Shown here piece by piece: positions 8,400 to 58,000 of a stretch of 64,000 bases of DNA (its first letter is position 1; each line of letters starts with the position of its first letter). The notes under the pieces were generated by a model. That model was given only the letters and a program-made list of their open reading frames with translations, was not told where the DNA came from and did no database searches. Source of the stretch: Azolla caroliniana (Eukaryota > Plantae > Polypodiophyta). Where the stretch lies: the NCBI GenBank assembly GCA_043228905.1, contig JBHGNT010000001.1, forward strand, positions 22,878,001-22,942,000. Direction: 5' to 3'. The position numbers were made by a program, and so were the translations under genes.

Positions 8400-8526
8400 T
8401 CTCCAGATTTTCCTGCTTACTCTGGAAGAACCAAAACAGAGAGAGCAAAGGAGAGCTCTCTCAATCAAGAAGAGGTAAAAGAAAAGATAAGAAAGAGAAG
8501 AGCTCTGATTCTGATGAAGGGCCTTA

Positions 8527-11500
8527 ATGTCCCTACCCACACAAGGAGAGGTAAAGGTAAGAAATCAAGAAGCTTTTGCCTTTGTTGCTCAAATCAAGCG
8601 CTGTGGAGACAAGAAGGATCTTCACAGAGGTACCAGGATACATGCTCATATTCTCAGAAGAGGACTTTTGCTTGAGGAGAACCCTCACCTATGCAATAGT
8701 TTGATCAGCATGTATGCCAAATGTGGCATCCTTTCAAAAGCACAAGAATTGCATGAGGAATCGGGATCTAGAAATGTGGTATCATGGAATGCACTCGTTT
8801 CTGGATATGCCCAAGAAGAGAAAGCCTATGAAACTTTCCATTGCTTCCAACAGATGAAAATAGAGGGTTTATTGCCCAATGCTATCACATTTGTTTGCAT
8901 CTTGAAGGTATGTGGAAACACAGGCAACATTGAGAAGGGACAACAAATTCATGAAGAGATTGTTCAATATGGTTTGCAAAGAAATAATGTTGTGGTAGGA
9001 AATGCTTTAATAGATATGTATGGGAAATGTGGTATGCTTGATAAAGCACAAAATGTCCTTGAAGAACTTCTCAATCGAGATATGGTCTCTTGGTCTACAT
9101 TGATCTTGTCTTATGCCAAACAAGGTCATAGTCATGACGCATTGAATTGCTTTGAAAGGATGCAAAGTGAGGGATTTGTTCCTGATGCAATTACATTTAA
9201 TGGTATTTTGAAGGCATGTGGTGATATTGGAGATATTAGGAAAGGTGAAGAAATGCACTGTGAGATTGCGATCAAAGGTTTCCTGGAAAAGAATGTACTT
9301 CTTGGTACTTCTTTGGTGGATATGTATGCCAAATGTGGCATGCTTGTAAAAGCTCAAGAAGTTCTCATACACCTTCCATTTCGAGATGTCATTGCTTGGT
9401 CTGCACTTATCGCCGGTTATGCTCAACATGGAAATTTTGATGAAGCATTGAATGCTTTTGAACACATGGTATCTGATGGTATCTCTCCCAATAAAGTCAC
9501 TTTCATTTGTATTTTGAAGATTTGTGGCAACATAGGAAACGTTGTCAACGGTGAAAAAATCCACCATCAGATTGTTAGCAAGGGATTGGTAGAGAAAGAT
9601 GTTGTCCTTGGCACTGCTTTAGTGGATATGTATGCCAAATGTGGTGCAATGGAAATGGCACAACAATTGCATGATGAACATTATGATCAAATCTTAGATT
9701 CCTGGAATGCATTGATTGCAGGGTATACACACGATGGAAAAGGTAAAAAAGCATTGGATTGTTTTGAACTTGTGCATAGACAGAGAATCTCTCCAGATGT
9801 AACGACCTTAACTTGCACCTTGAAGGCATGTGGTGGCATAGGAGTTATCAGTAAGGGTGAGAAAATTCATGATCATATTGTCAGTTTGGATTTACTAGAA
9901 AAATATACTTATCTTGGCAATGCGTTAGTATGCATGTACATCCAAGCTGGTGCATTAGCAAAAGCTCAATTAGTACTTGATGAGATTGATGCACCAAATG
10001 TGGTCACATGGTCTACACTAATTTCAGGTTATGTACAACACGGTCAAGAACATGAAGCATTGAAATGTTTTCAGAAAATGCAAGGTAAGGGATCTTCCCC
10101 AGATGAGATCATCTTTATGCACATATTGAAAGCATGTAGCTATGCCAGATGTATCGATAAGGGCCAAGTTATTCATAATGAGATTACTTCTAAGGGATTT
10201 CTTGTGGAAAATGCTATGCTTGGCAATGCTTTGGTCAACATGTATGCAAAGTGTGATAGGCTTGGAGAAGCAAGGCATGTGCATAACGGATTTCGTGTTC
10301 GAAGTGTTAGCTCTTGGAATGCACTGATTGGAGGGTATGCCAAACAAGGTCAAGGTAAACATGCTCTCGACATTTTTGAGCTAATGCTAAGGGAGAGTGT
10401 TTCACCAGATGCAATCACGTTTGTTTTTATATTGGAGGCTTGTGGTAGAATCGGAGCTATCAATAAAGGTGAACAATTTCACGACAAAATTCTAAGACAG
10501 GAATTACTGGAGGAAAATTTCATTCTAGGTACTGCATTGGTGGACATGTATGCCAAATGTGGCAAGCTTGTTAAAGCTCAAGACGTGCTAGAAGAACTTC
10601 CTTTCCGAGATGTAATTTCTTGGTCTGTATTGATTTCTGGATATGCCCATCATGAGCAAGGTCAAGAAGCTATGAATTGTTTTGAAAGAATGCAACTGGA
10701 GGGATTTTCTCCTGATGAAGTCACCTTTATCTCCATCTTGAAGGTATGTGGTAGTGTGGGAGCCATTGGCAAAGTAAAACATATTCATGATGAGATCATT
10801 CAGAGGGGTTTTCTTGAAACGAATGTCATTCTCGGCAATGCTTTGGTGGACATGTACGTAAAATCAGGAATGTTAATGAAAGCGCGACAAGTGTTTCAAG
10901 AGCTTCCTCTTCAGAATGTAGTTTCTTGGTCTACTTTAATTTCAGGATATGCCCAAGGGCATGGTCATGAAGCACTAAAATGCTTTGACCAAATGCACGA
11001 CAGTGGCATCTCTCCAAATGCAGTAACTTTGCTTTGCATTTTGAAGGCTTGTGGAAGCATAGGAGCCATTCACAAGGGCAAACAAATTCATGAGGAGATT
11101 ACTAGTAGGAGCATGTTGAGCAAGGATATCATGCTTTGTACTGCTATAGTGGATATGTATGCAAAATGTGGTGTGTTTGGAAAAGCACAGCAAGTTTTGG
11201 AAGAACACCCATCCCCAGGTGTAGTCCCTTGGAATGCACTAATGTCAGAATATGCAAAGCAAGGGCAAATGCATGACGCTTTGAAATGCTTTGAAAAGAT
11301 GAAAAGTAATGGCATTTCTATGAATGTGATCACTTTCCTTTGCATCTTGAAGGTGTGTGGAAGCATAGGAGCCATTGAGAAGGGAAAACAAGTTCATGAA
11401 GAGATTGTGAACATGGGTTTTCTGAAAGAAGATACTGATATTGCACTAGGCAATGCAATAGTAGATATGTATGCGAAATTTGGAATGCTTTCGAAAGCAC

Positions 11501-11949
11501 AAGCGCTCCTCGAAGAGCTTCCAGTTAGAGATGCAGTATCATGGAATGCAATCATTGGAGGATATGCCCAACATGGGCATGGTCATAAAGCTTTGATTTG
11601 TTTTAGATTAATGCAAAGTGAAGGAATATGTCCAGATAGAATCACTTTTCTATGTCTTCTCAATGTATGCACCCACTCAGGTCTAGTTAATGAGGCAAAG
11701 ATGTGTTTCGAAAATATGAGCAAAAACTATGGCATAATACCAAACTTGGAGCATCATTCATGTTTGATTACTCTGTTGGGTTGTGCTGGATATTTTGATG
11801 AGGTAATATCAGTGATTAAGACTATGCCAACTTCTTATTCGTCAGTCCAACTTGCACTTATGGGTGCATGTGATAGATGGGGACATTGGAAGCTTGCAGG
11901 ATCAATATTTAATCAGCAAAATGATTATTTTGCTTTTTTAGAAAGCTGA
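8527..11949 (+). CDS. PLS-class pentatricopeptide repeat protein (PLS-E type, no DYW), probable organellar RNA-editing specificity factor
   Basis: Uninterrupted 1140-aa ORF with 10 units of LVDMYAKCG / VSWNALIxGY / PDxITFxxILKACG at about 102-aa spacing. These are followed by S2 (LEHHSCLITLLG) and a partial E1 (LALMGACDRWG). The true start may lie in an upstream exon. Confidence 0.93.
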   Translation: MSLPTQGEVKVRNQEAFAFVAQIKRCGDKKDLHRGTRIHAHILRRGLLLEENPHLCNSLISMYAKCGILSKAQELHEESGSRNVVSWNALVSGYAQEEKAYETFHCFQQMKIEGLLPNAITFVCILKVCGNTGNIEKGQQIHEEIVQYGLQRNNVVVGNALIDMYGKCGMLDKAQNVLEELLNRDMVSWSTLILSYAKQGHSHDALNCFERMQSEGFVPDAITFNGILKACGDIGDIRKGEEMHCEIAIKGFLEKNVLLGTSLVDMYAKCGMLVKAQEVLIHLPFRDVIAWSALIAGYAQHGNFDEALNAFEHMVSDGISPNKVTFICILKICGNIGNVVNGEKIHHQIVSKGLVEKDVVLGTALVDMYAKCGAMEMAQQLHDEHYDQILDSWNALIAGYTHDGKGKKALDCFELVHRQRISPDVTTLTCTLKACGGIGVISKGEKIHDHIVSLDLLEKYTYLGNALVCMYIQAGALAKAQLVLDEIDAPNVVTWSTLISGYVQHGQEHEALKCFQKMQGKGSSPDEIIFMHILKACSYARCIDKGQVIHNEITSKGFLVENAMLGNALVNMYAKCDRLGEARHVHNGFRVRSVSSWNALIGGYAKQGQGKHALDIFELMLRESVSPDAITFVFILEACGRIGAINKGEQFHDKILRQELLEENFILGTALVDMYAKCGKLVKAQDVLEELPFRDVISWSVLISGYAHHEQGQEAMNCFERMQLEGFSPDEVTFISILKVCGSVGAIGKVKHIHDEIIQRGFLETNVILGNALVDMYVKSGMLMKARQVFQELPLQNVVSWSTLISGYAQGHGHEALKCFDQMHDSGISPNAVTLLCILKACGSIGAIHKGKQIHEEITSRSMLSKDIMLCTAIVDMYAKCGVFGKAQQVLEEHPSPGVVPWNALMSEYAKQGQMHDALKCFEKMKSNGISMNVITFLCILKVCGSIGAIEKGKQVHEEIVNMGFLKEDTDIALGNAIVDMYAKFGMLSKAQALLEELPVRDAVSWNAIIGGYAQHGHGHKALICFRLMQSEGICPDRITFLCLLNVCTHSGLVNEAKMCFENMSKNYGIIPNLEHHSCLITLLGCAGYFDEVISVIKTMPTSYSSVQLALMGACDRWGHWKLAGSIFNQQNDYFAFLES

Positions 11950-28635: not shown

Positions 28636-28849
28636 ATAGTCACAAAGCGATGGCCAATGTGATGTGGCAATGGATCATGCAAAATGGACCTAGGAATTCA
28701 GTATATAATTTATGTTGCACATTTATATAATTAAAACATTCTAATTTTTCATTCATGGTGCAAAAATGACTATTTATCACTGGTAGCTTTTTGCATAGCT
28801 AATTAGCTATGTCAAGGACATAGCTAATTGTTTCCACTCGCATGCTTTC

Positions 28850-30030
28850 ACCCCTTTATGGCTTAAAACAAGTGCTGAGGATGTGGTACTAAAAGTTTGA
28901 GTCCTACATCAAGCAGCTTGGATACCACTGATCTAACTCCGACCCATGTATGTATACTCGGCAACTGGACGACGAGTTCCGGATCTATCTGATCCTATGT
29001 GTTGCCGACATGCTGATTGTAGGAAGCAATCAAGCCGAAATCGGAAAGCTAAAGCGAAGTCTTCATGAAAAGCTTGTGATGAAGGAACTTAGACAAGCCT
29101 GACACATACTGGGCATGAGGATAGAGTGAAATTGGACAACAAAAACTCTCTGACTCACCCAGTCCGACTATATTAGCAAGGTGCGGAAGCACTTCAACAT
29201 GGAGAATGTGAAGCCAACACCAACACCGCTTCTGACGTTGATCCGACTATCGGATAGAAACTCTCCTTTAACGAATAAGGAGTGAGAGCTAAATGGAAAG
29301 ATACCTTACGCATCGACTGTAGGATGTATCATGTACGCGATGGTGGCGACCCGACCCGATCTTGCCTATGTTGTAGGGGTGGTTAGCCGGTACATGTCAA
29401 ACCCAGGAGGGAAGCATTGGGAGGCCGTCAAGCACATCTTTAGGTATCTAAGAGGGACCAAAGATGCACATCTGAATTTAAGATCAACAAACTCGACCGA
29501 AGTAGAAGGACACACCAACTCCGACTATGCCAGAAATTTGGACAATCGAAAGTTGACATCAGGTTGCATCTTCACCTATGGCGGCAGTGCCATATCATGG
29601 AGGTCAAAGCTGCAAGAATGCATGGACATGTCTATCACAGAGGCCGAATACATAGCAACACCAGAAGCAGCCAAAGAAGCAATCTAGCCGCATCGACGGT
29701 TAGCCAATTTCTAAGGGACAAGTCAAATCGACCACCCAACGCCAATGATCTATTGCGACTCACAGAGTGCAATACACCTCATTCGGAACCTAGTCTATCA
29801 CATGAAGTTGAAACACAGTAAGGTGCGGTATCAACATATCCGGGAGCTTGTATCCGAGAAGAAGCTTGAAGTCCAGAAGATCGACACCGAGGTGAACATC
29901 GTCAATTGCCTAATGAAGCCACTCCCAGATCAACGCTTCGGACCACTAAGGACAAAGATGGGACTACGAAAAGCGACCGAGCAGAAGAAAGCCAAACAAG
30001 GAGAAAAAGGTAATTTAGAGATCCAACTGA
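28850..30030 (+). mobile_element. Copia RT/RNase H fragment
   Basis: MYAMVATRPDLAYVVGVVSRYMSNPG, ISWRSKLQ, YCDSQSAIHL. Confidence 0.9.
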
Positions 30031-31813: not shown

Positions 31814-32467
31814 AAGCCTGATGTAGCTAACAACTATGCATTCTTGGATGAAGTGATATCGCAACCCAATGTGTTTGGTCTTTGCGTGGTATATTGGGTA
31901 TTTAGCCAATGCAATGGCACTTTGACTATCAAAAACCGAGATATGGCACCTCCCATAAACTGAAAAATATACCCCAAAGTGGATTTTTTTCTGTTGGAAC
32001 AACCAGTATAATCAGAGTCCGTATATCCAATAAGCCTGATGTAGCTAACAACTATGCATTCTCGAATGAAGTGATATCGCAACCCAATGTGTTTGGTCTT
32101 TGCGTGGTATATTGGGTATTTAGCCAATGCAATGGCACTTTGACTATCAAAAACTGAGATATGGCACCTCCCATAAACTGAAAAATATACCCCAAAGTGG
32201 GTTTTTTTCTGTTGGAACAACCAGCATAATCAGAGTCCGTATATCCAATAAGCCTAATGTAGCTTACAACTATGCATTCTCGGATGAAGTGATATCTAAA
32301 CCCAATGTGTTTGGTCTTTGCGTGGTATATTGGGTATTGAGCCAATGCAATGGCACTTTGACTATCAAAAACTGAGATATGGCACCTCCCATAAACTGAA
32401 AAATATACCCCAAAGTGGATTTTCTTCTATCGGAACAACCAGTATAATTAGAGTTCGTATATCCAAT
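31814..32467 (-). repeat. Three tandem 218-bp copies of an internally deleted RNase H segment
   Basis: Near-identical ORF text repeats at 218-bp spacing (ORFs starting 31909 and 32127, with the third copy near 32345). Confidence 0.9.
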
Positions 32468-33691
32468 AATGGATACATTTCCACAACCTAAACATATACA
32501 CTTATTCTTGGTGCAACCCAAATATCTCAATATCATTTTAACTGCCTCCCAATGTTTCTTACCAAGGTTTGACAAAAATTTGCTCACAGCCCCCATTGCA
32601 AAGGCATTGTCTAGCCTAGTTGCTATCATAGCGTACATAAGACCACCAACAATAGACTAGTAAGGAATTTTACTCATGAACTCCTTTTCATTATCAGATT
32701 TAGGGCATTTATCTTTGCTCAATTTAACATGCATAGATAATTGAGTGCTCAAAGGCTTTAAACTCTCCAAATTAAACCTCTTGTGTATTTTGCATACATA
32801 CTCAGATTGAGACAAATAAATACATCCATTACTCCTATCCCGAGTAATACGCATTCCAAGGATGTGTTTTGCATTTCCCAAATTCTTCATATCGAAGGTT
32901 TGAGTTAGATTTTCCTTGAGTTTGGACATCTCATCCTTGTTTTTACATACGATGAGCATATCATCTACATAGAGTATCAAAATCACATATGAGTCATTTA
33001 TACATTTCTTCATATATAAGCATGAGTCTTCATTACTCCTAGCATAACTTTGGGACCTCATAAAAGCATCAAATGTTTGAAACCATTTTCGAGGTGATTT
33101 CTTAAGACCATATAGATGTTTCCATAAACTTCAAAGCCCTTTGGTTGCTCCATATAGATCTCTTCATCGAGGTCTCCATGTAAAAAAGCAATTTTTACAT
33201 CCATTTGAAACAAATCAAGATCATTTTTCGCAACCAATGCAAGCATCATGTGTAATGTAGTCATCTTGACTACTGGGGAGAAGATTTCATCAAAATTGAC
33301 TCCTTGTTCTTGTTTAAGACCTTTTGTCACAATGCGAGCTTTATACTTATGATAACACTATCGGATGTTTATTTGTACTTATACACCCATTTACATGGTA
33401 GTGCTCTCCTACCTTTTGGCAAAGGCACTAAATCCCAAATTCCATTCTTATGGACCTCATTTTGTATTGCTTGTTTCCACTTAGCATGATCGTGGACATA
33501 TATGGCCTCATTATAGCATGAAGGCACACCGCCATTTGATAGCAATACATAATCAACAAATTTACCGGGTGGTTTGGAGACACATTGTCGTGACTTTCGG
33601 CGCCGGATCATTGTGTGAGTTGGGTGGAAAAACGTAGTGTACAAATTACACTACGAGAACGTGTGGTTCTCCTCAATGATTCCTGACCCTG

Positions 33692-36647
33692 TGTTACCCA
33701 TAAGAATATACAGGGAGGCATAAGGGTATGTGTAATGATGTGGTTGATGTGTATGTGTAAAGTAAATGAGTATGTGAGGATGAGTATGTGTGAGCACATG
33801 CACAATTATGTGCACAAATTACACTACGAGAACGTGTGGTTCTCCTCAATGATTCCTGACCTTGTGTTACCCGTAAGAATATACAGGGAGGCATAAGGGT
33901 ATGTGTAATGATGTGGTCGATGTGTATGTGTAAAGTAAATAAGTATGTGTGAGCACATGCACAATTATGTGCATATGACAAGAGTGTAACAGTCGTCTCT
34001 TTTGTAACGGTCATTATTACCGTTACATTATGTATTATATAAACCCCTTATGGGGCATCTAATGGATATACATTTTTCCCCTCTCATGTTGTGTCATTTT
34101 CAATTTGTCTTTCTCTCTAGCTCTCTCACTATCGTAACCCCCTTGGGAGGGGGGTGAAGTCATTCAAGGCCTCACCCCCCACCCCAACAACACTTTTGGC
34201 ACGCTGGAACGGCCGACCTCCCTTCAGAAGAAGTCACTCCCTCACTCCCTCCCTCACTCCCCGTCCCCATCACTAATTTCTCTCCTCAATCTCTCTACCT
34301 AAAACCCTAGACACCCCAACCTTCATCTCTATGTCCATCCATCTCTCTCATTCTGTGAACTTGCGTTGTGTTTGTGTTGTGCATGTGTCTATATGTGTCC
34401 ACTTCCAAAAGATGAAGGGTGAAGAAGAGGAGGAAAGTGAAACGGTTCTCGGCAGAGAAGGGAAGGAAATGCTTCGGCATATGTGAGGTCTGTTGCTCGA
34501 CTGTTCGCGAACTCCGCTATGGAGAACAGATATTCACAACTCTCTACAACAGAATAGAGCAAAGAAGAATGAACGAAGCCATGGCTAAGGCTACGTTCCA
34601 AGGTACTCGAAATAAAGAGGTCGTTCGAGGAGTAGATTGCCATTCACGCTCCAACATTTATCATAAGCATGGTTTGGGGGCCATCTAAGCGAAGAACGAT
34701 GGATCCTTCCCTTCCCACCAGAAGCAAGCTTCTGAAACTCTCGTATCTGAGAGAGCTCCCAAGTTCTACCCTGCCGATGATGTTCCTAAAACCCTTCAAA
34801 ATAAATGTGCCCTCAAACCTACGAAGCTCAGGTCAAGCACCACCCCAGGCACTGTCTTGAATCTGCTTGTTGAACATTTTAAGGGGAAGAGGGTTGTTTT
34901 CCTAATGCAACTGAATCTGGTTTGCTTTTGGTTACAAGTCCATTCAAGCTAAATGGTGTACCTCTACGTCGAGTAAGTCAATCATATGTAATAGCAACCT
35001 CTACAAAGCTTGATGTAAGCAAAGTAGATATGGGTAAAATTACAGACAACTACTTCGAAAAGGAAGTTCAGAAGAAGAAGAAGAAAAGTGAGAGCGAGTT
35101 CTTTGAGGCTAAGAAGGAGGAAAAAGAATCAGAATCTCAATGAGAAGGATTAGAAGAAGAAGACAGAGGATGTAAGCAGAAGATGGATCCATGGATGGAA
35201 AGGCAAAGCTTTAATGCAGGTTATGGGGCCCTCTTCAATCATCATTATCATCCACACCATCACAATCTCCATCTGAGATCTCATTGGATACTTCTCTTAG
35301 GATGGGCCTCTCACAACATCTCAAAATCTTTGCATGTTGACGTTGCTTCTTCTTGCGCTGATCCTTCGATTGACCTAAGGGTTTCTGATCCATTCCTGCA
35401 GGTCATTATAAGGAGTGTAGTAGAGAGGCGACTAAGCTACAAGAACGTTCTACATTTTCTCGCCACTTATTAAGTTAACATAGATTTTCTCTCTGAGTAT
35501 CTCAGCTCTCTTCAATGCTCTGGTAGCAAAAGATGATTCTACCAGGGCTTGTGTTTTGTATGTAACTTCTCTAGAATTGTGTGGCCTACTTGTAACAACT
35601 ATGGCACTACAACTAGTAAAGATGATGAATGGAGATTCCAACAAAATCAAAGAGACCATCGCCACTGCCAATGCAATCATTTCCACCTCCACGAGTGTTG
35701 TTGCCGCCATTGTTGCCACTGCCACCGCGCCGTTGCTGCTATCGTTGCCGCCGCTATCATTTCCGCCACCGCCGCTAATGTTGTCGTCGCCGCCGCCGCC
35801 GCCGCCGCAATCCGCTAGAAGTGAAAGGCGAGAATATGAATGGAAGCAAGAAGAGAGGGGCATTCAAAAAAACATAAAGGCAGAGAAGATGAAATTTCAA
35901 AAGCTCAAGGGCATGACATGAGATTTCAAAATTTGGAGGGCAGAATGCAGAATTTCGAAAACACAAGGGTCCAAAATAAAATTTCAAAAAATTTGAGGGT
36001 AAAAAATTTTAAAAACCAAAGGGTAAAAAATATAAAACTCACTTCACATGATGAAAGAAAGAATACACAAATGCACAACACAATTTCACGACCCATGCCA
36101 CATTGTACTAGCCGATTGGTGTATGATCCAATCGCGACTTGTGATGCTGACCAAACGAGAAGGTTCGAGTCAAGCAAAGCTCCGATTGAAGTTATCGATC
36201 ATAGAGTAGTGATCCGGTCGAGGGATTTCCGACCGTTGAGACGACCGATGGAGTTCCGGTCGAGAAGAATTGCCATGGCGAGTGGGTTCACCGTGCAATG
36301 CACTGTCCCACAAGCGTGCCATGTGTTACCCGTAAGAATATACGGGGACGCATAAGGGTATGTGTAATGATGTGGTTGATGTGTATGTGTAAAGTAAATG
36401 AGTATGTGCCGATGACTATGTGTGAGCACATGCACAATTATGTGCATGTGACAAGAGTGTAACGGTCATTATTACCGTTACATTATGTATTATATAAACC
36501 CCTTATGGGGCATCTAATGGATATACATTTTTCCCCTCTTAGTTTGTGTCATTTTCAATTTGTCTTTCTCTCTAGCTCTCTCACTATCATAACCCCCTTG
36601 GGAGGGGGGTGAAGTCATTCAAGGCCTCACCCCCCACCCCAACAACA
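33692..36647 (+). mobile_element. Non-autonomous LTR element with captured host sequence
   Basis: LTRs TGTTACCC...AACAACA at 33865-34192 (with a duplicated start from 33692) and 36324-36647; TSD CCCTG; PBS TGGCACGCT at 34197. No gag/pol is recognisable. Confidence 0.9.
34581..35128 (+). pseudogene. RPL6: Processed 60S ribosomal protein L6 (eL6) retrocopy, 3'-truncated
   Basis: [80 protein letters not shown] and EFFEA. One stop and one 1-bp frameshift; no introns. Confidence 0.92.
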
Positions 36648-36907
36648 CCCTGAATACCCTCAGGCTGTGCATGAGAAACATCATTCTGAGCATCATCATT
36701 CTAACAATATTCTTGCTGAAAATCATCATTTTGCACATCATTGTGCGGAGCATCTTCATGCTGAACAATAACAGTTTTTCATGACTGACCACATGTAGAA
36801 GCATCTACATCCATAAGATTTTTTTGTTTTACATCAATAGAAGGCACAATATCCTTAAACATGACCTTTCTCACTTCTACCTCTTTTATAGATTGTTTAT
36901 GCCTTTT

Positions 36908-39900
36908 TGTAAAGAATAGCGTGCAGAAGCAATAGAAAACTGAACACAGAAAATACGCAGGTTTAATGGAGAGCTTGAATATACACAATACGCGCGGGAG
37001 AGAGAGAGAGACAAATAGACAGACAGAGAGAGCACACAAAACTCAATTCAAAAATAATACCCAGTCTGTACATCTTATGTGTTCAGTGAACACTTATATA
37101 TAAGTCCATACGGACTGACAAAAGTACGGTGTACTTCAATGCTCACACAAGCGTCAGACACTAACTATGAGACATTAACTTCCTAGTAGTCTAGGCTGCT
37201 ACTAGGCTTCCAGTTACTAATGGATCCGGCTAACCGGCTCCCCAGCTCACCGATCCGGCTCAGGCTTATTCAGCCGATCCGGATCCGGTTGAGCTTGTCG
37301 CTCAACAATTTTGTTCTCATAAAAAGCAATCCGGCTCATCCTTCCGGATGCCGATTCGGCTCAGACTTATTCAACCAATCTAGATCCGGTTGAGCTTGCC
37401 CCTCAACACTCCCCCTCAAGCTCAACTTGAGGTCAGATCATAGTGTCAGTCTCCATGGCAGCCGGTCCTTTCACCCGGCTCCTTCTGGCGTCACTCCGCC
37501 TCGCTAACGCTCCTCATCCGGTCCGGTCCCGTTTGCCGCAACCCTTTTGTTTCTGTGCACCTCGACCTCCTCGGTAGGCTTGTCTGTTCAATAGTCCCAA
37601 TTCAACTCCATCGCTGTTGTAACTTCGGTGCTTACCGATTCGTCGATTCCTTTGTGTTGGTGTTGACTTTCACTGCCTTCTCGTCCTCTTGGCTTTGAAT
37701 TGATCCAGTTCTTCCGAATACGTCTGTTGACCCAAATTGATTGTCTCCGATTCATTCCAGATCTTGTCCGAATCGATCGCTCCCGATTCATCTTCTGGTT
37801 CTAGACCCTTCACCACATTGGACCATGTCCGAGTCTTGGCCTTCTTCTTCTAGTGAGCTCTATCCTGTTTGACTCTGCCACCGCTTGTTCCGACTTGTTC
37901 AGATGTGTCAACTTCCTTTGTTGACTCTGTCCTTTCTTCTTCTTGTCTCTCCCTCTGTTGGTTCTTCCCTCACCAGCGCAATCGACAATTTCTTTGCCTT
38001 TGCCCGTTCTTCCCGTCAAGTGTGGCACATCGAGATGCTGAACACCAAGCATTTCGGAGAAGTGCTACAACTTATCCGATCCGAGCGGTTTGGTGAAGAT
38101 CTCGGCAACTTGCCGATCCGTATGAACATACCAAAGTTCGACTTCACCGCTCAAGACACGCTCACGCACGAAGTGGTAGTGCACTTCTATGTGCTTTGTG
38201 CGAGCATGGAATACGGGGTTCTTGGCAAGCTGCATGCTGCTTATGTTGTCACAGTAGATCAAGATCAGGGTCGGCACCTCGATCCACAGATCTTGCAGCA
38301 GTCGCCGAAGCCAAATGGCTTCACAGGTGGCAACGATAACGCCCCGGTATTCAATCTCAGTGCTCGAAAGGGCCATTGTTGGCTGCTTTTTGTTGTTTCA
38401 CGCAACAGTTGCGCTACCAAGGGAAAACGTATTGCCGGAGGTGGATCAACAATCTAATGCATCGTTGGCCCAGTCAGCATCGGTATAGTTGACTAGCTCT
38501 TCGGTTATACTATGCCGGTATAACAGTCCCCGGTCCTTCGTGCCGCTTACATATCGTAAAATTCGATGCGCGCACAAAAGGTGCTCCACAGTTGCCTTCT
38601 GCATATATTGGTTGATCACGCCGACCGGATAACTAATGTCGGGTTGGGTGATTGTCAAATATATAAGGCTTCTGACGATTTGTCGGAACTGCTTCTCATC
38701 GCAGGCCGGTTCGGAGTCAGGATGGAGCTTCTGGTTCTGGTCTAGGGGTGTGGAGATCGGGCGACATTCCGTCATGCCAAACTTGTACAACATATTCAAC
38801 ACATAGTGTCTTTGTGAGAGCAATATGCCGTCAGGGGGTTTGGATCACCTTGATCCCAAGGAAATAGTGAAGGTCCCCCAGGTCATTCATCTCAAATGCG
38901 TCCAACATCTGGGACTTCACTCAGCTGTTTTCATCGAGTCTGGGTCACGTGATGACTAGATCATCAACATACAACAAGATGCAAATTGGACCATCCAGAC
39001 CTTGCCGGATGAACCACAACGAATCAGACTTGGTGGCCGCAAACCCCATCTTACGCAACTGGTGCGTGATCTTGGCATTCCAAGCTCGGGGGGCTTGCTT
39101 CAGGCCATAAAGTGACTTCTTTTGCCGGCATACCGCCGACTTGTTCATCCCCGACTCGAAACTGGGACGTTGGGTCATAAAGACCTCTTCTTCAAGATCG
39201 CCTTAAAGAAATGCATTCTTCACGTCCATCTGGTGAAGGTGCCACCCTCTTGCCGTAGCAACTGCCAGTACCACACGAACTGTCGTCATCTTCGCTATCG
39301 GAGCAAAGGTCTCGTCGTAGTCGATTCAGTGGGTTTGTGTGTATCCCTTCGCCAATAACCGGGCCTTGTATCGGTTAACCAAACCATCGTCATTGTACTT
39401 TACCTTGTACACCCACTTACATCTGATCGGTTTACAGTGTCGGGGAGGCAATTAGGTCACATGTGTCGTTGGCATGAAATGCTCGCATTTCTTCCTCCAT
39501 AGTGGCATGCCAATTTGCATCCCTTGCTGCTTCTACGTAGCTCTCCGGCTCACGCACTTCCGCCACCTTGGTCATGTACGCATAGTGATGCGTCATGTAC
39601 TCGGTGTACCCGTAGCGCTTGACGGGGTTCTTCTTGCGGGAAGACCGGCGTAACTTATCGTTACCCGATTTAAGGCCCTTCTTCGCCGGTTTGGACTTCG
39701 TTCCCGAAGATACGCCTTCTTCCTTACCGGAGTCGGATTTGCTCCAATCTGACTCAACGTTGCAGGTTTCGTATTCCGGCATTTTCTTCTTCTCCTTCTC
39801 TTTACGCGTGAACCGTCTCCTCAATTCCTTGCGCGGGGAGAGCACGACAGAGTCTCCATTACTCGCCAGTTCCTCATCCGACTGGTAATCCCGACTCAGC

Positions 39901-48125: not shown

Positions 48126-50464
48126 TTTCCCCCTTATTACATTGTGCTCCACATCCTTATATAGTGATGAGAGAGTCTTAGCAATCCATGGTTTTTCTCT
48201 AACTATGGACTCCATGCTTTCTCAATCAATAGACTATATGCTTTCTCTAACATGCATTTTCTAAAAGTGATCATGCATTTTTTATGAACTATAGTGTTCA
48301 TGCACACTAGATGTGCATGTGTAGCTTTTTCTTTTATCATGCATTTTCTTCTAACTAAAGCTTTTTCCTACAAAATATGCGTCAGATAGTTTTCTATGTG
48401 GGATATCTTCAAATTATTAACATGGTGGTACAAGGTTCAAATCTTGCCCTATGCATGTAATATATATTTTAATATTTCCTATCTTTTTCTTCATATTTAT
48501 TGAATCGGGTACTTTATACGTTTTTCACGTAGTGTACAAAATACACTACGACACTCACCCCCTCCGAACCCGCACATCCTCCGGTATGTGCCGAAATTGC
48601 CAGTGCTCATAATTCTCCTTTACCCATAGCATCCTCCATTTCTCTTGGTATGTCGACTTTGTCTCTCCATTTTGAGCACATCCATTCTTTCCACCCAAAC
48701 CATTGTCACCATCCGATCCACCATATTCTTCGTTCACTCTTTGCATGGCCATGACTGGTTGTCATAACTCGTTGTGTTCTTCTTGAGCTTAACCCTTCAT
48801 GTCTCGTGCATGTGCCACCTTCATTCTGACTGTGTCCTTCGTCAAGGCACTCCGCACTTCGTCCACCTTCATCGTACAATCTCGCATTAGAGTTGACAAT
48901 CTTCATGTTAGAGTCCTCCTTTGTCGAGATCTCATACTCACTAACACCCTTTAAATCCACTTGGTCCTTGTCGACCGTGGTAGTGTGCCTGCTTCGTGTC
49001 TTCCTCGTGTTCACTGGCCTCGATTGTTTCGACCTCTAGCTTCATTCCGGATCGGTCTCGTCTGATCGGCTTTCGGCTAGGTCAACTTCCATCCGTATTC
49101 GCGTTCGGCCAAATCGGACTCGGTTGATCGGTTTTGACCGAGTCGGGCCCCTTCCGGTTCGGGTTCGATCGATCGGTTTTGGTTTGGGTTGGCTTCCTTT
49201 TCCTCGTGTTCATCGGCCTGACCGGTTCTACCTCCGGTTGAGCCGGATTAACTTCTGTCCGGATCTGTCTGCTCCGATCGGCTTCCGGCTAGAACGATTT
49301 CTAGCCGGGTCGGGCTGGACCGATCGACTTATGGCCGAATCCACTTCCACCTGGTTCAGCTTTCATTTAGGCCGGAATTCCGGCCGGATCGACTTTCAAT
49401 TCTTCCTTTCTTACTACGCTTTAACTCTTCATCGAACTCTACCTCACCGAAACCTTCCATCTCTCTGGTCTCATGTTGGCTCTTGTGCACATCTGTCAAA
49501 GTCTTCGGAATAGGATTGGAGGAATCCCTATGTTATTGATCAATCATAACCGCGTCGTAGTCATCACTCGCATTGGCTTGGTCTTCCACTTTCCCGCTGC
49601 CACCTTTCGTCTCTCCGGTCTCATGTTCCCTCTAGAATGCAACCCCCGAAGTCTCTAGAATTAGTGGGCAAGAATCCGTGGCATTATCATCCTTTGTTGT
49701 TTTTTCCATAGCCACCTTATCGGCTATCTCTCTGTCGTATGCATCGGCTTGGACCTTCCTTTTCTCTCCGCCATCTTCTGTCTCTTTATCTCCCTCGATC
49801 ATGCAAGCATCCACCTCAGTCAATCACATCCGCCTCACTCTTTATGCTTTTTCTAAAAGTGATCATGCATTTTCTATGAACTATAGTGTTCATGCACGCT
49901 AGATGTGCATGTGTAGCTTTTTCTTTTATCATGTGTTTTCTTCTGACTAAAGCTTTTTCCTAGAAAATATACGTCAGATAGCTTCCTATGTGGGATATCT
50001 TCAAATTATTAACATGGTGGTACAAGGTTCAAATCTTGCCCTATGTGTCAGGAACAGTACTAAGACAGAGAAGGACTTAGTACTAAAAGAAGTATTAGTA
50101 CTAAGAGAGGTGAAGAACTCTCGAGAGAAGGAAAGAGTGAGTGAGAGGGAGGGAGAGAGAGATCGAGAGAGAGAGAGAGAGTGATGATAAGAAAAGATAT
50201 ATATTATGTGAAGAAAATGTACAGTAACTAGGGGGCTTAAGACTGGCGTTGAACCGATTTGGTTCGAAATAATGCCTTGTGCCTCCTTTTATAGTGTTCT
50301 AAGGAATACTCCTAAAGTTTCTAGAATGTTCCAGAGAAATCTGGAATATACATCAATTTTCTATAATAAAACATAAATGAAAATAATATTCTACATATTA
50401 CAATGTATAATCTAATGGTCAAGAGCTCGACCCATGTAGCATAAGGTCATGGGTTCGAGTCTTG

Positions 50465-53400
50465 TCATATCATGACATTATCCCCTCGTTTAAAACGACG
50501 AGTGTAACGAGTCGTTTTGGATTGAGGACCCAGTTTGTCTGGATATTGACGATGGAAGTCTTCAAGAAGAGCACGAGCATTGGTGACATTCTCTATCGGT
50601 TCCCAAGTACGCTCGCTGGGACTATATCCTAGCCAATCGACTAGATAGTAGAGCTTGTTGCGAACAAACTTGGAATCAAGGATGGCGGCAACCTCGTACC
50701 CAGGTCCATCTTCAAGCTCGATCGGGGGTGGAGGTTGTGTAATACGGCCTGGGATGGTGCTCTCTTGATAGGGTTCGAGGAGAGAACTATGAAACACTGG
50801 ATGTATCCGAAGTTGTGGAGGTAGATCAAGACGAAAAGCGACATCATTAATCTTTCCTATAATACGGAGAGGACCTAATCGCCGATAATCCAACTTCTCG
50901 TATGGGCGAGTAATCTTGATGTGTCGTCGGAGTAGCCATACCCGATCTCCAATGTTAAAACTAGATGGGAGTCGATGACGATCCGCATAAACCTTGTGTG
51001 TTTGTTGAGCTTGTTGGAGATGAGTAGACAAATCCACTTGTATCTTGCGTAACCTCTCCAAACGATCCTCTGCGCGAGGATTTGTGGACAACTCTGGGGT
51101 TTCAAGTACACACCACCGGGGGTGACATCCCGTATAAGCATAAAATGGCGTAACTTTCGTGGATGTGTGGATAGAGTTGTTATAGGCAAATTCGGCGAAG
51201 TGGAGAATATCTACCTAGTCATCCTAATGATAGCTGAGAAAGCACCGTAGATACTGCTCCAGCGTTTGATTGGTTCGTTCGGCTTGGCCGTCGGTTTGTG
51301 GGTGGTAGCCGGAGGAGAGGTTACAACTGACCTTGAGCATGTTAAAAAGGTGCTTCCAGAATTTTGACACGAACTGGGGTCCACGGTCGCTGATGATACT
51401 ATCAAGAAGTCCATGATGCCGACATACTTCACGCATGACAATTTCGGCAGTGTCTTCACTGGAGATCTCCTTAGTACATGGCAAGAAATGAGCCATCTTC
51501 GTATATCGATCGACCACCGTTAGAATCGCATTGAACACCTTAGAGACTGGAAGATCTGTGATGAAGTCTAGAGCAATGGATTGCCACGACTTGCTTGGAA
51601 TTGGTAATGGTTCTAATAAACCATATGGATGATGCCTTGGCATTTTCGCTCTGCAACATGTATCACAAGTCCAAACAAAATCCTCGACAAATTGTCGCAT
51701 ATAGGGCCACCAGAATTATCGTTGTACTAAATGTAGTGTTTTAGTACTACCAAAATGCCCAACTGTATATGTGTCATGACAGTTTTGTACTACTTGAAGG
51801 CGGCAAGAACCATTAGGAACATACAAAAGTTCTTTAAAGAAGAGTAATCCATCATGGTATTTGAATTGCCGATAGTCCGTACCTGGTGGTTGCGACTGTG
51901 AACACAACGCTCGAGAGGGATCAATTTGTGCTAGTATAGCTTGGGCGAACGCATCTGTCTTCAAGTCTTCGCATATGGTATCGATAACGCGGGAATCCAT
52001 GGGCATGTCAAAGATCTGTGTTGCTTGTAGTCGTGTCGGTCCCAAGATGACTTATTTTTGGTTATCGAAAGCTGGCTCGCCGGGACGGGGTGCTAGATAC
52101 GAACGTCGTGATAATGCATCTACCTTCCCTTGGTGCTTCCCCGGACGATATGTAATTTTGAAGTCGAAACGCGTGAGGAAGTGGGCCCACCGAGCTTGAC
52201 ATCGATTCAACACACGAGCATCCTAAAAGTAGGCAAGGTTCTTGTGGTCACTAAATACGGTGACCGGATGAGAGGATCCCTCCAGAAAATGCCTCCATTG
52301 CATAAAAGAATCCACTATTGCCAATAGTTCCTTATCATGAATTTCGTAGTTGATTTCGGCGGCGTCAAACTTGCGTGAGTGAAAAGCCACAGGATGTAGC
52401 TTCTCATCATTCCCCTGTTGTGACAGAATGCTCCCTAATGCAAAATCCGATGCGTCAGCTTCGATAATGAATGGTTTTTCCGGATCGACATGAGCTAGAA
52501 TTGGAGCCGAGGTAAATGCCTTTTTAAGACTCTCGAAATCCACATCCGTTTCTTCAGACCAGATGAACGGTTGTCCCTTCCTGGTAAGTTATGTGAGAGG
52601 TAGAACGATCTTTGAGTAATCTTGTATGAACTTTCGGTAAAAATTGGCAAAGCCTAGGAAGCATTGCACATCCCGCACCGAACGCGGAGTCTGCCATTCT
52701 ACCACCGTTTTGACCTTAGCTGGGTCCATGGAGATGCCTTCTGACGAAATGATGTAGCCAAGAAATTCCACTTGGTTGCATCTGAAACTACATTTTTCCA
52801 GCTTTGCATACAGACCATGTTCTCAAAGTCGTTTTAGTACTAATAGTACATGAGAATCATGTTCTTCTTGGGTCTTTGAATAAACCAGTAGATCATCCAA
52901 ATAGATGATCAAACAATCATCCAAAAGATCTCGGAATATATCATTAGCCATGTGTTGGAAGACTGTTGGTGCATAAGTGAGGCCGAACGACATGACCATA
53001 TACTCGAAGTGCCCATATCTGGTGCGAAACGCGGTCTTCCATTCGTCTCCTGGTCGGATCCATACGAGGTTATATGCTCCCCGTAAGTCAATCTTCATGA
53101 AGAACTTGGCACCATTGATCCGTTATAAAAGACTTGAGATAAGGGGAAGAGCATACCTATTCCTGATTGTAACCTTATTCAAGCCACGGTAATCTACAAC
53201 GAGACGAAGCAATCCATCCTTTTTCTTGACGAAGAAAATGGGCGCGCCCGCTGGAGATTTCGAATGCCGGATGAAACCATTTTCCAAATTCTCCTCTATA
53301 TAGGCCCGAAGGACTTCCAGCTCGGTTGGTGACAAATTGTAGATCGGTCCCCATGGCGGGTCTTTTCCCGGTTGTAAATCGATGGGGCAATCGTACGATC

Positions 53401-54067
53401 GATGATGAGGAAGTGTGTTGGCTTGTACTTTATCAAACACATCGGCGTAATGACGATACTTCTCAGGAAGTTGAATGGTGGATTCTTCTTTAGTGGTGCT
53501 GGAGGGGTTTACTGATATTGCAAAGAGGAACATTTCCTCCTTGTGCCCTTCTTTACGCAACTGACGTAGCGAAATTGTTGCCATCTTTTGAGTTGACCCT
53601 TGGGTTTGTCGACACCGGATTTTTCTTGTTCTCCAATCTATGTCTGGGTTATGTAACTCGAACCACGGTAATCCTAAAACTATGGGATGTTCTGGGATAC
53701 TAATAATATTAAATGATACTACACATGCTAAGTTATCTAGGACAATATTAATGGGCTCTGACTCTTCTATGATATTTCCGGAAGCAATGGGACGTTCATC
53801 AATGACTACTATAGAGGCTGGACACTGGAGTTTTCTTAGGGATATCTTATGAGCTTGAGAAAATTTCTTATCCATAAAGCAAGAGTTAGCTCCGGAATCT
53901 AGGACTGCTACGACATGTACTGGAGGGGTACTTTTAGTACTAACTATTACTTGGGCTACGAACACATCACTAACTTGCTTAGAGGGAATGGGACCACTAA
54001 TGGGCTGCACAGATCTAGGGTTGTCCAACCAAACGGCTCCTATTTTGGCTGGACTTAGTCGTTTAAC
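50465..54067 (-). pseudogene. pol: Chromovirus Pol (PR-RT-RH-INT-chromodomain), interrupted by several stops
   Basis: ORF pieces 53123-54028, 52823-53098, 52589-52771, 52223-52543, 51716-52045, 51224-51700 and 50465-51091. Confidence 0.9.
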
Positions 54068-55005
54068 TCTTCTTCTAACTGACTAAGGACATCAAATTTG
54101 TTCGCTAGATCTGGGCTATTAGTACTATTAGGACTATCAGATATCCCTACTGAAATAGGCTCGGGTTTAGTACAATTAGAACTAACGACTATTTGGTTTA
54201 CCTGTCTTCTTGGCCTATGGGGGCAATTTACTGCAATATGTCCTGGTTCACCGCAGTAAAGACATAGTCGATTTGTACGGCGTCGCTGCTTTTCTTCTTC
54301 GGATAATGGCCCTCGACGACGTGTAGTGTCAATCTCCATCGGAGTCGGAGTATTCGCTGGAGGCACATTATATGACTCCCTCGGAAAAGGTCTTGCTACC
54401 ACTGAGGCGTAGGTGGGCTCTGATCTTGCCCTCGGCATCTGTAGCTGTCGTTCTGAACGTCGCTCAAAGAGGCGGTTGTCACATCTCACCACGCGACTGA
54501 TTGCTTCTGTTAAGGACTTTGGCTCTTCGGGGAAGGTCAAGAGTAAATCCTTGACATCGTTGCGTAAACCATAACGGAATTGCTCCATCAACGCTTGATC
54601 ATCCCAAGGGATATCGGCGGCGAGTAGGCGAAAATCTGCAGCGTATGCAGAGGCTGGACGGTCACCTTGGCGTAATCGCTGAATTTTGTTGATTACGGTC
54701 CTGATGCTGTCAGTATCTCCGAAACATGCTTTAAACTCACCTAGAAACTCTTCAAAATTGTTGAGTAACGGAGATTCCTTCTCTAATAGTGGAGCGAACC
54801 ATGCCAACGCTGAGCCACTTAACAAAGTGCCTACTAAACCCACTCGTGATGCATCGGTGGGATACTGGGAAGGATGCATTTGAATAACTAATCGTACCTG
54901 GTTAAGGAACCCTCTAAACTGCAATCGCGTTCCATCGAACTTCGTGGGAAGGCCAATCTTGGGTTCTTTATGAATCCCTTGTGTTTCGGGCCCTTGTTGT
55001 TGCAT
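54055..55005 (-). CDS. gag: Chromovirus Gag (PEG10/Tf1-like capsid plus zinc knuckle)
   Basis: 316-aa open frame with PTKFDG, LRQG, TPMEID and a CCHC motif. The 5' end may extend further in a shifted frame. Confidence 0.85.
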
Positions 55006-58000
55006 CGCTACGATGGTTGCTTAGAGTTGTTGCACGCGTAACGCAAGTTCCCCATGTTGTTGTTGCGTTTGCTGTTTTTCTAAGGAGATTTGCTAAAGAT
55101 CCCCCAGCAACCGTTGGTTTTCTTGTTCCAAAGCTTGGAACTTCTCTTTCAAGCATTGAAATTCCAAGAAAACAGATTGATATTCTTCAGTGCTAACAGT
55201 GGCCGTGGGATGAAAGAAAAGAGGAATAAGAGATTAGTAAGAAATGAGAGAGACAGAAGGTAGGGAAAATCGGTTCAAACTGTCAGGAACAGTACTAAGA
55301 CAGAGAAGGACTTAGTACTAAAAGAAGTATTAGTACTAAGAGAGGTGAAGAACTCTCGAGAGAAGGAAAGAGTGAGTGAGAGGGAGGGAGAGAGAGAGAG
55401 AGAGAGAGAGTGATGATAAGAAAAGATATATATTATGTGAAGAAAATGTACAATAACTAGGAGGCTTAAGACTGGCGTTGAACCGATTTGGTTCGAAATA
55501 ATGCCTTGTGCCTCCTTTCATAGTGTTCTAAGGAATACTCCTAAAGTTTCTAGAATGTTCCAGAGAAATCTAGAATATACATCAATTTTCTATAATAAAA
55601 CATAAATGAAAATAATATTCTACATATTACAATGTATAATCTAATGGTCAAGAGCTCGACCCATGTAGCATAAGGTCATGGGTTTGAGTCTTGCCATATC
55701 ATGACACTATGCATGTAATATATATTTTAATATTTCCTCTCTTTTTCTTATTTATTGAATCGGGTACTTTATACGTTTTTCACGTAGTGTACAAAATACA
55801 CTACGACACTCACCCCCTCCGAACCCGCACATCCTCCGGTATGTGCCGAAATTGCCAGTGCTCATAATTCTCCTTTACCCATAGCATCCTCCATTTCTCT
55901 TGGTATGTCGACTTTGTCTCTCCATTTTGAGCACATCCATTCTTTCCACCCAAACCATTGTCACCATCCGATCCACCATATTCTTCGTTCACTCTTTGCA
56001 TGGCCATGACTGGTTGTCATAACTCGTTGTGTTCTTCTTGAGCTTAACCCTTCATGTCTCGTGCATGTGCCACCTTCGTTCTGACTGTGTCCTTCGTCAA
56101 GGCACTCTGCACTTCGTCCACCTTCATCGTACAATCTCGCATTAGAGTTGACAATCTTCATGTTAGAGTCCTCCTTTTTTGTCGAGATCTCATACTCGCT
56201 AACACCCTTCAAATCCGCTTGGTCCTTGTCAACCATGGTAATGTGCCTACTTGGTATCTTCCTCGTGTTCATCGGCCTTGATTGTTTCGACCTCTGGTTG
56301 AGTCGAATTAGCTTCTTTCCGGATTGGTCTCGTCTGATTGGCTTTCGGCTAGGTCGGCTTCCATCCGTATTCGCGTTCGGCCAAATCGGACTCAATTGCT
56401 CAGTTTCGACCGAGTCGGGCCCCTTCCGGTTCGGGTTTGACCGATCGGTTTTGGATATAGAACCTCGTGAATCCCACAAGTATATTGTATTAGATTAATC
56501 AATATTAAGATAAGAATATGAAAAGAAAAAGGAAGTCGAGTTGACTAGAAAAGTCAACGGCGATGATGGTAGAGTCAAAAAGGACAAAGCCGATCGGAAG
56601 AAGGCCAAGACCCGAACGTGGTCCGATGTGGTGAAGGGCCTGAAAACGGAAGACGAGTTGGAGACTACTAGCTTGAACAAGAGCCGGAACGAATCGAAGG
56701 CAACCGATTTGGACAAGAGCTAGAACGAATTGGAGGAAGCAAATTCGGTTCAACAATTTGATTGGGAGGTGCCAAATCAACTAAAGGCCAAGGGGACGAG
56801 AAGGCTACGGAAGTCGACACTGATACAAAGGAACCGATGGGTCGACAAGCGCTGGATTCATAGCAGCGAAGGAGCTGAGATGGGCCTACTGAGCAGACAA
56901 GCCGACCAAGGAGGTTGAGGTGTGCAGAACCGGACGGGTGGCGGGAAGCGGAACAGGACCGGAAGAGGAGCGCGAGCAAGGCGAGAAGACGCCAAAAGGA
57001 GCCGAAGGAAAGGACTGGCTACTATAGAAACTAACACCACGATCCAACCTCAAGTTGAGCTTGAGGGGGAGTGTTGAGCGAGCAAGCTGAACTGGGTCCG
57101 AATTGGCTAAATAAGCCATAGCCCGATCGGTATCCGGATCAAAGAGTGGGGTCGGTATCTGGATCGGAGAGCTGGATCGGATTGAAACAGAAGATTATTA
57201 TTTTTTAATTGAGTTTATGTTCTTCTCTCTCTTTGTCTCTCCTGTGTATTCTTTGTGTAAGGTCTCCATTAAATCTTCTTCTCTACGTTCTGTTGGTATC
57301 CGGTTGAGCCGGTTTGTCATACGCTTCCACATATTAACTTTAACATTTCCCTTAATCAGATAAACCCAAACTTTCCTAGTGGCATCATCACTGAAAGTAA
57401 CAAAGTACAATGCACCACCCAAAGATCTTGTGGGCATAGGTCCACAAACAACCGTGTGAACAAGATCCAATGGTTTAGTGGATGAGTTAACACTGGTCTT
57501 ATGTGCACTTTTGGTTTGCTTACCATGTTGGCAATGTTCACATAAGGCAAAATCAGAGAATGACAACTTAGGTAAGTGGCCTTAACGAGATAGAATTTCC
57601 ATACCATTTCTCGACATGCTCGTCATTGGTTGGTTTGTGACAACCAACAAATGTTCTTTTTTATGAACAAATATGTCATTATAGACTAGTTTCCCATTTG
57701 GTTCACTATTACTAACAACAATGTAAAATGTGTCCCATGAGCTAGGCAAAGTGTATAACAGAAATACACATTTTAGCTCATCATCCATAGTCATTTTCAG
57801 AGCCTGTAATTGTGACCATAGTGCATCAAAATCATTCAAATGAGAGGTGACAATATCGTTGTCCTTCATTCTAAGATCATAAAGTTTTCTCATTCGATAA
57901 ACTTTATTTGATGCGATCTCTTTTTCATAAGTACTACATAGTTTAGTCCATAACTTTTCAACTGAGTCACAATCCAAGACCGTGAAGTATAAATTGTCAG

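Follow-up and report, generated by a model that had tools for sequence, protein, structure and literature searches.

A 64,000-nucleotide stretch of the Azolla caroliniana genome (GenBank assembly GCA_043228905.1, contig JBHGNT010000001.1, positions 22,878,001 to 22,942,000; hereafter the window, numbered from its first base) carries a 3-kb element with two long terminal repeats (LTRs), in which the place of the polypurine tract (PPT) is taken by a 40-nt cassette that ends like the 3' end of a tRNA. The element is a non-autonomous LTR retrotransposon from a plant and shows every structural feature examined apart from the PPT. The exchange of the PPT for a structured tRNA-end cassette is real and clade-wide. 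As for its function, we lean, without great confidence, towards the reading that a second host tRNA would anneal to the minus-strand DNA at the cassette and prime the plus strand there.

The LTRs of the element are direct repeats with TG...CA ends, which differ by nine substitutions over 310 aligned columns (Kimura two-parameter distance, K2P, 0.030) and by two gaps. The left (5') LTR (33865-34192, 328 nt, TGT...ACA; all features lie on the plus strand unless stated) is followed after a 4-nt spacer by TGGCACGCT (34197-34205), a short primer binding site (PBS) of 8-9 nt, which is tRNA-Arg-like by proxy. The right (3') LTR (36324-36647, 324 nt) is preceded by GTCCCACAAGCGTGCCA (36305-36321), which is separated from the LTR by the 2-nt spacer TG and is the only match to this 17-mer in the window at up to three mismatches (expectation from shuffling, 0.13). 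No PPT stands before the right LTR, where purine runs in the final 20 nt do not exceed 3 nt; on the minus strand, a 5-nt purine run adjoins the opposite LTR, and the sister element L004 described below has no such run. An earlier note on this DNA had pointed out these features, namely the direct repeats, the PBS-like motif after the left LTR, the inverted tRNA-end motif before the right one and the lack of a purine tract adjoining an LTR, and all of them hold. Its description of primer sites at both inner ends needs amendment: both are present, but they are unequal, since the left site is complementary to the right motif over only 9 nt. Moreover, the right motif is only the end of the cassette, which begins at 36282 and whose upstream part had been missed.

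The CCCTG target-site duplication, which the same note regarded as intact, does stand on each side (33687-33691 and 36648-36652), within the 4-6 bp expected, and empty-site contigs, which are paralogous, join both flanks across a single target copy. On the left, however, the exact copy adjoins a 118-nt partial outer copy of the LTR start (33692-33809), and the complete left LTR follows CCTTG (33860-33864), because a 173-bp tandem duplication spans the left junction (33637-33968; second unit 14 nt shorter) and takes in host flank, the target copy and 118 nt from the start of the LTR. The two units differ by five transitions over 159 columns (K2P 0.032), similar to the LTR pair, and the duplication likely arose after insertion. 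Locally, the sequence is also compatible with a 3-bp target duplication and an LTR that begins 2 nt earlier, but this is disfavoured against the 5-bp reading by L009, where a related LTR start has a non-TG flank, and by the empty-site joints with one target copy; 5 bp is also the usual length (PMC6317226). Six internal open reading frames (ORFs) and one entering the right LTR, scanned for gag-pol coding, gave matches to ribosomal proteins and one weak unrelated match only. ARAGORN found no tRNA gene in the window or in loci L001-L019, and an Rfam scan of 33400-37000 gave no tRNA match, its four weak matches lying far below gathering scores.

The earlier note had set conservation of the motif in the family as a test beforehand, and the outcome is clear: it is kept across many LTR families and four organisms, and no PPT was seen in its place. 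Parts of the element are present in 15 sequencing runs from 8 studies, six of which were aligned, four against the whole element and four against the junction 36278-36357. No RNA dataset was listed among the 15, which has no bearing on expression. In the whole-element alignment the summed contig depth, which does not equal copy number, was maximal at 36250-36355 in all four runs, compared with roughly 15-860 over the cargo, and it rises along the non-coding 3' internal region (35863-36281; 73-80% identity to L004). The junction was aligned by 678, 241, 199 and 3 contigs in runs of four organisms, with a depth peak at 36302-36331 in three of them (X1, X11 and X13) and a flat profile in the one with 3 contigs (X15). 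Several contigs run from the inner 3' region across the motif into the LTR, and the loose ends of junction contigs show other LTR starts behind the same motif. The only junction position that varies at 6% or more is 36313, where A is replaced by G (90, 94, 97 and 67% of depth), with no indels listed; either base allows the minus strand to pair with the G of the tRNA.

A scan of metagenome contigs, with a pattern that fixed the 17-mer and TGT and left the spacer free at 1-4 nt, yielded 15 loci from four assemblies (possibly of one sampling campaign), with the motif ahead of several unrelated LTR families. For the spacer, hairpin and T-arm tests, L012 (92% like L002) was removed and the window added (n = 15). 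The spacer between CCA and LTR (36322-36323 in the window) was 2 nt in 15 of 15, with G as the second base in all, and in neither the window nor any of the 15 loci, which had been chosen for the cassette, did the 60 nt next to the LTR contain a purine run of at least 8. L004 is a whole sister element with the same two ends and a different cargo, and the 7 of its 15 cargo ORFs that were scanned had no Pfam match. On the other hand, viral contigs contained no match to the motif plus LTR start and two to the bare 17-mer, both in phage sequence, and prokaryote genomes contained two matches to the motif, in bacterial contigs without cassette or LTR. We treat these four as probable chance matches. 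A match in mulberry small RNA was unrelated.

The cassette itself consists of three parts. The first 10 nt (36282-36291) resemble the 5' strand of the T-stem and the T-loop of a tRNA (8 of 10 positions identical to the proxy in the window), the following 13 nt (36292-36304) form an insert between tRNA positions 58 and 59 with a 4-bp hairpin (36293-36296 with 36300-36303), and the last 17 nt (36305-36321) are the tRNA 3'-end sequence ending in CCA, which reads as a PBS on the minus strand. Across the 15 sequences the 10-mer agrees with the proxy at 7-10 of 10 positions in every case, against a maximum of 7 and a mean of 4.7 in 60 control windows, and the matching bases include loop bases left unpaired in the fold of the RNA itself. 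The insert, 13-16 nt long, always separates the 10-mer from the 17-mer at the step 58/59, where reverse transcriptase (RT) stops on its tRNA primer in HIV-1 (PMC3185662). Its hairpin retains 52 of 60 Watson-Crick pairs, compared with 42.3 +/- 2.2 when the arms are shuffled (52 was reached in 1 of 5000 shuffles), a statistic that is the best of four loop lengths and is inflated by related sequences; three of the four pairs are altered on both sides in a compensatory manner. In contrast, an outer stem possible within the RNA shows no compensatory change and is broken in 15 of 75 cells, and the T-arm-like stem-loop fold of the plus strand is no stronger than shuffles (z -0.51 and -0.23). Because the hairpin co-varies while the outer stem is uncompensated and the fold ordinary, the cassette seems to be kept as a tRNA-like sequence and the hairpin as a structure. 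Such two-part conservation would be expected from two-segment pairing between a real tRNA and the complementary strand.

Four cases show the two inner ends together, namely the window, L004, L005 (a tandem form) and L015. The core TGGCACGC follows the left LTR after 4 nt in the window, 1 nt in L004 and 5 nt in L005, and in these three the PBS is complementary to the cassette over 8-9 nt (-17.7 to -19.0 kcal/mol). L015 has a different PBS of 18 nt, 7 nt past the left LTR, whose end was deduced from its sequence because the right LTR is cut by the contig end. The complement of this PBS agrees with phage tRNA-Arg(TCT) genes at 12-13 of 15 gene bases (3 of 12 matches called tRNA), and the PBS matches its own cassette at 8 of 17 positions (-13.6 kcal/mol). 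On the cassette side the spacer is always 2 nt, and on the PBS side it measures 1, 4, 5 or 7 nt. Two further observations concern these loci. In L015 (oriented 399-443) a word complementary to the T-loop lies 14 nt beyond the 18-nt PBS, as in the cassette, with the T-stem part unmatched, and may be due to chance. L005 (oriented 489-1360) reads cassette, LTR, PBS, a leader of about 340 nt, a second copy of the last bases of the LTR and flank, which resembles an aberrant strand-transfer product.

The cargo, an extra ORF and the ordinary 18-nt PBS of L015 agree in orientation and, as indirect evidence, place the cassette at the PPT position of a genomic plus strand. The cargo is a captured copy of the coding sequence for ribosomal protein eL6 (RPL6) on the plus strand (34593-35131), about 180 codons over about 540 nt that cover approximately residues 7-186 of a plant protein, frameshifted, without an intron-sized gap, and with best matches to plant ribosomes. 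Contigs share many differences from this copy, which suggests several copies of the cargo-bearing subfamily or of the source gene. The extra ORF (the 872-aa P0005 and its relatives) matches on the strand of the cassette in 9 of 15 loci (E 1e-5 or better), more weakly in L007, and not in four loci. It is unbroken in contigs of up to about 10 kb and, where its end is visible, stops shortly before the cassette. Its relatives (P0005, P0017 and others; 719 proteins at E 0.001 or better) are 870-1100 aa long and have no Pfam match, P0005 giving no match at the cut-off and a weak lead to PF10536 (plant mobile domain; score 0.80). Proteins with an N-terminal extension of the extra ORF had neither a Pfam match nor a link to pol, viral contigs contained no relative of it, no gag was recognised by eye after the PBS of L005, and none of the loci retrieved joined a pol to the cassette. 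An integrase fragment in L013 was rejected as the pol of the family, being on the other strand and not to be tied to the family, and L013 was also rejected as a two-LTR element, its LTR-like repeats bearing terminal inverted repeats. These are a 300-bp element present twice in L013 (oriented 787-1089 and 1873-2175), the ends of which match the window at 28777-28856, 50411-50477 and 55640-55707. TATA-like words lie on the plus strand in the LTRs of L002/L012, L005 and L009.

With regard to the identity of the tRNA, nine viral-contig matches to the T-arm pattern were found, of which two were called tRNA-Arg(TCT), two tRNA-Ile and five were uncalled. The two phage tRNA-Arg genes have the same T-arm and end as the cassette, but 18 nt from position 59 versus 17 in the cassette, so that pairing requires one bulged tRNA base. 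The cognate is likely tRNA-Arg by these phage proxies, because the phage genes share both T-arm and end, and the plant inter-PBS (iPBS) primer 2237 has the same final 9 nt as the majority form of the motif (PMC7798630). The 3' 28-mers of the proxy tRNAs have predicted duplex energies of -38 to -48 kcal/mol with the minus-strand cassette (RNA parameters), compared with -32.5 kcal/mol for the final 18 nt alone and -19 to -27 kcal/mol with the plus strand.

From the anatomy, the lack of a PPT, the conservation of the cassette, the fixed spacer and the co-varying hairpin, all of which are observed, we infer every priming step in what follows. The cassette has the tRNA sense on the plus genomic RNA and therefore cannot bind a tRNA there, while its minus-strand DNA copy can. 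The CCA of an annealed tRNA would then face U3 at a distance of two bases, which is the geometry of a PPT. First, a tRNA at the 5' PBS would prime the minus strand as usual. After RNase H has cleared the RNA, the minus-strand cassette may pair with a tRNA-Arg-type 3' end over 17 bp, probably with one tRNA base bulged, while the hairpin of 13-16 nt would be looped out near position 58 and a second pairing made with the 5' half of the T-arm. RT would extend the CCA end across the spacer into U3, yielding the two terminal bases that integrase trims, and RNase H would remove the second tRNA as it removes the first. The enzymes would be supplied by a gypsy-type partner of greater length, in which the extra ORF stops directly ahead of the same cassette. 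Among the options that the earlier note had offered for the family, a tRNA annealed to minus-strand cDNA as plus-strand primer fits best. More broadly, chances are about equal for and against the full proposal that a large, multi-family clade of plant LTR retrotransposons dropped the PPT and primes both strands with host tRNAs, sometimes two different ones (L015), the second being captured by the minus-strand DNA through a three-way junction, in which its T-arm is opened and the hairpin looped out at the modified A58.

Several points weigh against plus-strand priming by a second tRNA. The tRNA match is by phage proxies, 2 of 9 of which are Arg(TCT) and 2 of 9 Ile, and which are one base longer than the cassette. 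Substitution classes in the T-arm 10-mer show no wobble preference after base composition is counted, and A at 36313 may be plain CHG deamination. The invariance of the 17-mer in the 15 loci and the lack of compensation in the 3' arm of the outer stem are partly by construction, because the search pattern fixed the 17-mer and TGT, and PPT-bearing copies may exist outside the loose ends listed. The orientation relative to pol is indirect, because none of the enzymes of the family (RT, RNase H, integrase) was seen; moreover, in L001 a piece of the extra ORF lies directly ahead of the cassette in reverse orientation, and the window LTR has a TATA-like word (TATATAA near 36491-36496) legible on both strands. 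Finally, the third step presupposes an RT that is able to extend a tRNA on a DNA template.

The strongest competitor, to which we give a minor but real chance, is that the plus strand starts from the cassette RNA itself, a tRNA-like piece of the genome that would survive RNase H and be cut exactly after CCA as RT removes its tRNA primer, so that a second tRNA would be unnecessary. This would bring the fixed 2-nt spacer and the PPT-like geometry under the known rule that RNase H cuts the PPT primer out of the genomic RNA (PMC3185662), would tolerate the one-base shortfall against the canonical tRNA end, and agrees with the ability of the plus strand to fold into a T-arm-like stem-loop. That fold, however, is no stronger than in shuffled sequences, its outer stem is broken in a fifth of the cells (15/75) and uncompensated, and the T-loop-like bases kept 13-16 nt upstream would be left unexplained.

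It is unlikely, on the evidence of orientation, that the genomic RNA is the antisense transcript, with the cassette as a first-strand PBS with Ty1-like T-arm pairing and the short motif priming the second strand. The cassette is the longer and better conserved site, pairing with the T-psi-C arm is known for the first strand of Ty1 (PMC4974528), and both the TATA-like word on the two strands of the window LTR and the inverted ORF fragment of L001 would suit this arrangement. Against it, the eL6 mRNA cargo lies on the plus strand, as do the extra ORF in 9 of 15 loci and the TATA-like words in the LTRs of L002/L012, L005 and L009, and it is the cassette end that has a constant spacer (2 nt) while the other end varies (1, 4, 5 and 7 nt). 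If it were true, both strands would still start from tRNA-type ends. The related suggestion of the earlier note, that the family replicates from either strand, is weakened likewise, since cargo, extra ORF and the PBS of L015 all point to the plus strand.

The same note had proposed a tRNA mimic of the element that pairs with its own PBS, and a pairing of this kind, whether for closure as by CYC5/CYC3 in Ty1 or with the cassette as a cleaved first-strand primer, and with the plus strand started from some other non-purine primer, is now quite improbable. The complementarity of 8-9 nt in the window, L004 and L005 would allow it, and Ty1 and Ty3 require end-to-end pairing (PMC4974528). But L015 has the cassette with an unlike PBS that matches it at 8 of 17 positions, a mismatch that argues against self-pairing, and the plus-strand primer and the fixed spacer would be unexplained. 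We consider equally improbable a role of the cassette outside priming, such as tRNA capture or packaging, a pause site or a decoy for tRNA-processing proteins, with plus-strand priming unrelated to it. Ty3 does have tRNA-binding sites near its 3' end (PMC4974528), but our cassette is in the tRNA sense on the plus RNA and unable to bind tRNA, its distance from U3 is exactly 2 nt in all 15 sequences, and purine runs of 8 or more are absent from the 60 nt beside the LTR in every locus. A one-off recombination product or chance match in the window copy, which its decay, its duplicated left end and the four chance matches to 17-22-mers found in large collections might have suggested, is already refuted by the 678, 241, 199 and 3 contigs of four organisms, by 15 loci with several LTR families, and by the whole sister L004 with the same two ends and another cargo.

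Other features of the window and of the loci were recorded along with the element. A G/C-rich hairpin lies near the 3' end of each LTR (34145-34184 and 36600-36639) in a 91-nt region that folds at z -2.2, and L004 and L014 have a like end. In L009 a pair of related LTRs (oriented 236-668 and 791-1203; 74% alike) point in opposite directions, with about 120 nt between them. The host sequence outside the element is a decayed Copia-type element on the minus strand, whose RT region starts within 33372-33691 (RVT_2, E 0.0011, below the curated cut-off) and whose RNase H region contains three tandem 218-nt copies (31814-32467). Elsewhere, an uninterrupted reading frame of 1143 aa with pentatricopeptide repeats (8518-11949, plus strand) is the clearest host gene of the window and of a type that suits a fern host, and an LTR pair 97% alike surrounds a gypsy-type gag-pol with a chromodomain-like end, read by eye, at 50046-55710 on the minus strand.

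In retroviruses and LTR retrotransposons alike, a PPT is taken to be the general starting point of the second strand (PMC3185662). An abundant clade without a PPT would show that this step is replaceable, and would allow the requirements of RT and RNase H for setting the U3 end to be tested directly; a plus strand primed by tRNA, if true, would be a new route for LTR elements. The advantage that Tat elements derive from their second RNase H is reported as not understood (PMC10508981), and if the partner is a Tat element, this domain would be a natural place to look. In addition, such elements could be given the wrong orientation or be missed by annotation software that scores PBS and PPT, because the strongest PBS-like match is on the opposite strand and at the wrong end.

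Comparison with known systems gave partial likenesses. In the literature searched, mostly by title and abstract and with older and subscription papers sparsely covered, we found no precedent for plus-strand priming by tRNA, and the three primer types catalogued for LTR elements are all for the first strand (PMC6317226). Elements with canonical priming, such as HIV-1, Ty1 and Tf1 (PMC3185662; bioRxiv 10.1101/2022.12.06.519325), share with ours direct TG...CA LTRs, a 5-bp duplication, a tRNA-type PBS and a conserved signal adjoining U3, but their signal is a purine tract whereas ours is a tRNA 3' end with a T-arm extension. The OTA superclade of Ty3/gypsy (Athila, Tat I-III, Ogre and Retand, the last described from angiosperms and with an added RNase H between RH and INT; PMC6317226) and the fern Tat D elements (PMC10508981; PMC13468544) appear similar in the non-Met, Arg-like PBS and in the long extra ORF near the 3' end of the relatives. 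The OTA PBS is complementary to a complete non-Met tRNA (Ala, Arg, Asp, Lys or Trp), while that of the window is Arg(TCT)-like by phage proxies, and the OTA extra ORFs contain PF10536, PF04195 or PF03078 in a share of members, while P0005 has its weak lead to PF10536. The available parts of these OTA and Tat accounts report no tRNA-like site at the PPT position, those of the two covering ferns (PMC13468544; PMC10508981) have no mention of PBS, PPT or tRNA, and the window motif is absent from the supplementary text of PMC6317226 (17,418 characters), outside which its large element table may lie.

The bipartite PBS of Ty3, the PBS boxes of Ty1 and its CYC5/CYC3 (PMC4974528) resemble the cassette in split tRNA pairing that includes the T-psi-C arm, and Ty3 also has a tRNA-related sequence near the 3' end of its genome. 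The Ty1 and Ty3 sites, however, complement the tRNA on genomic RNA and serve the first strand, whereas the 3' segments of our element have the tRNA sense on the plus strand, so that only minus-strand DNA would bind a tRNA. Self-priming elements (Tf1/Sushi, Tcn1 and TAR; PMC6317226) give a precedent for swapping one standard primer source, but they replace the first-strand tRNA with the 5' end of the transcript, and those of Tf1 type retain the PPT; the PBS of the window element resembles tRNA ends, unlike the transcript-5'-end PBS of Tf1 type. Finally, non-autonomous elements in the TRIM/LARD range (PMC13570524) likewise lack gag-pol, keep LTRs and priming signals and occur in tandem forms, as L005 does; these are described with PBS and PPT, whereas the window element carries a host mRNA cargo together with the cassette.

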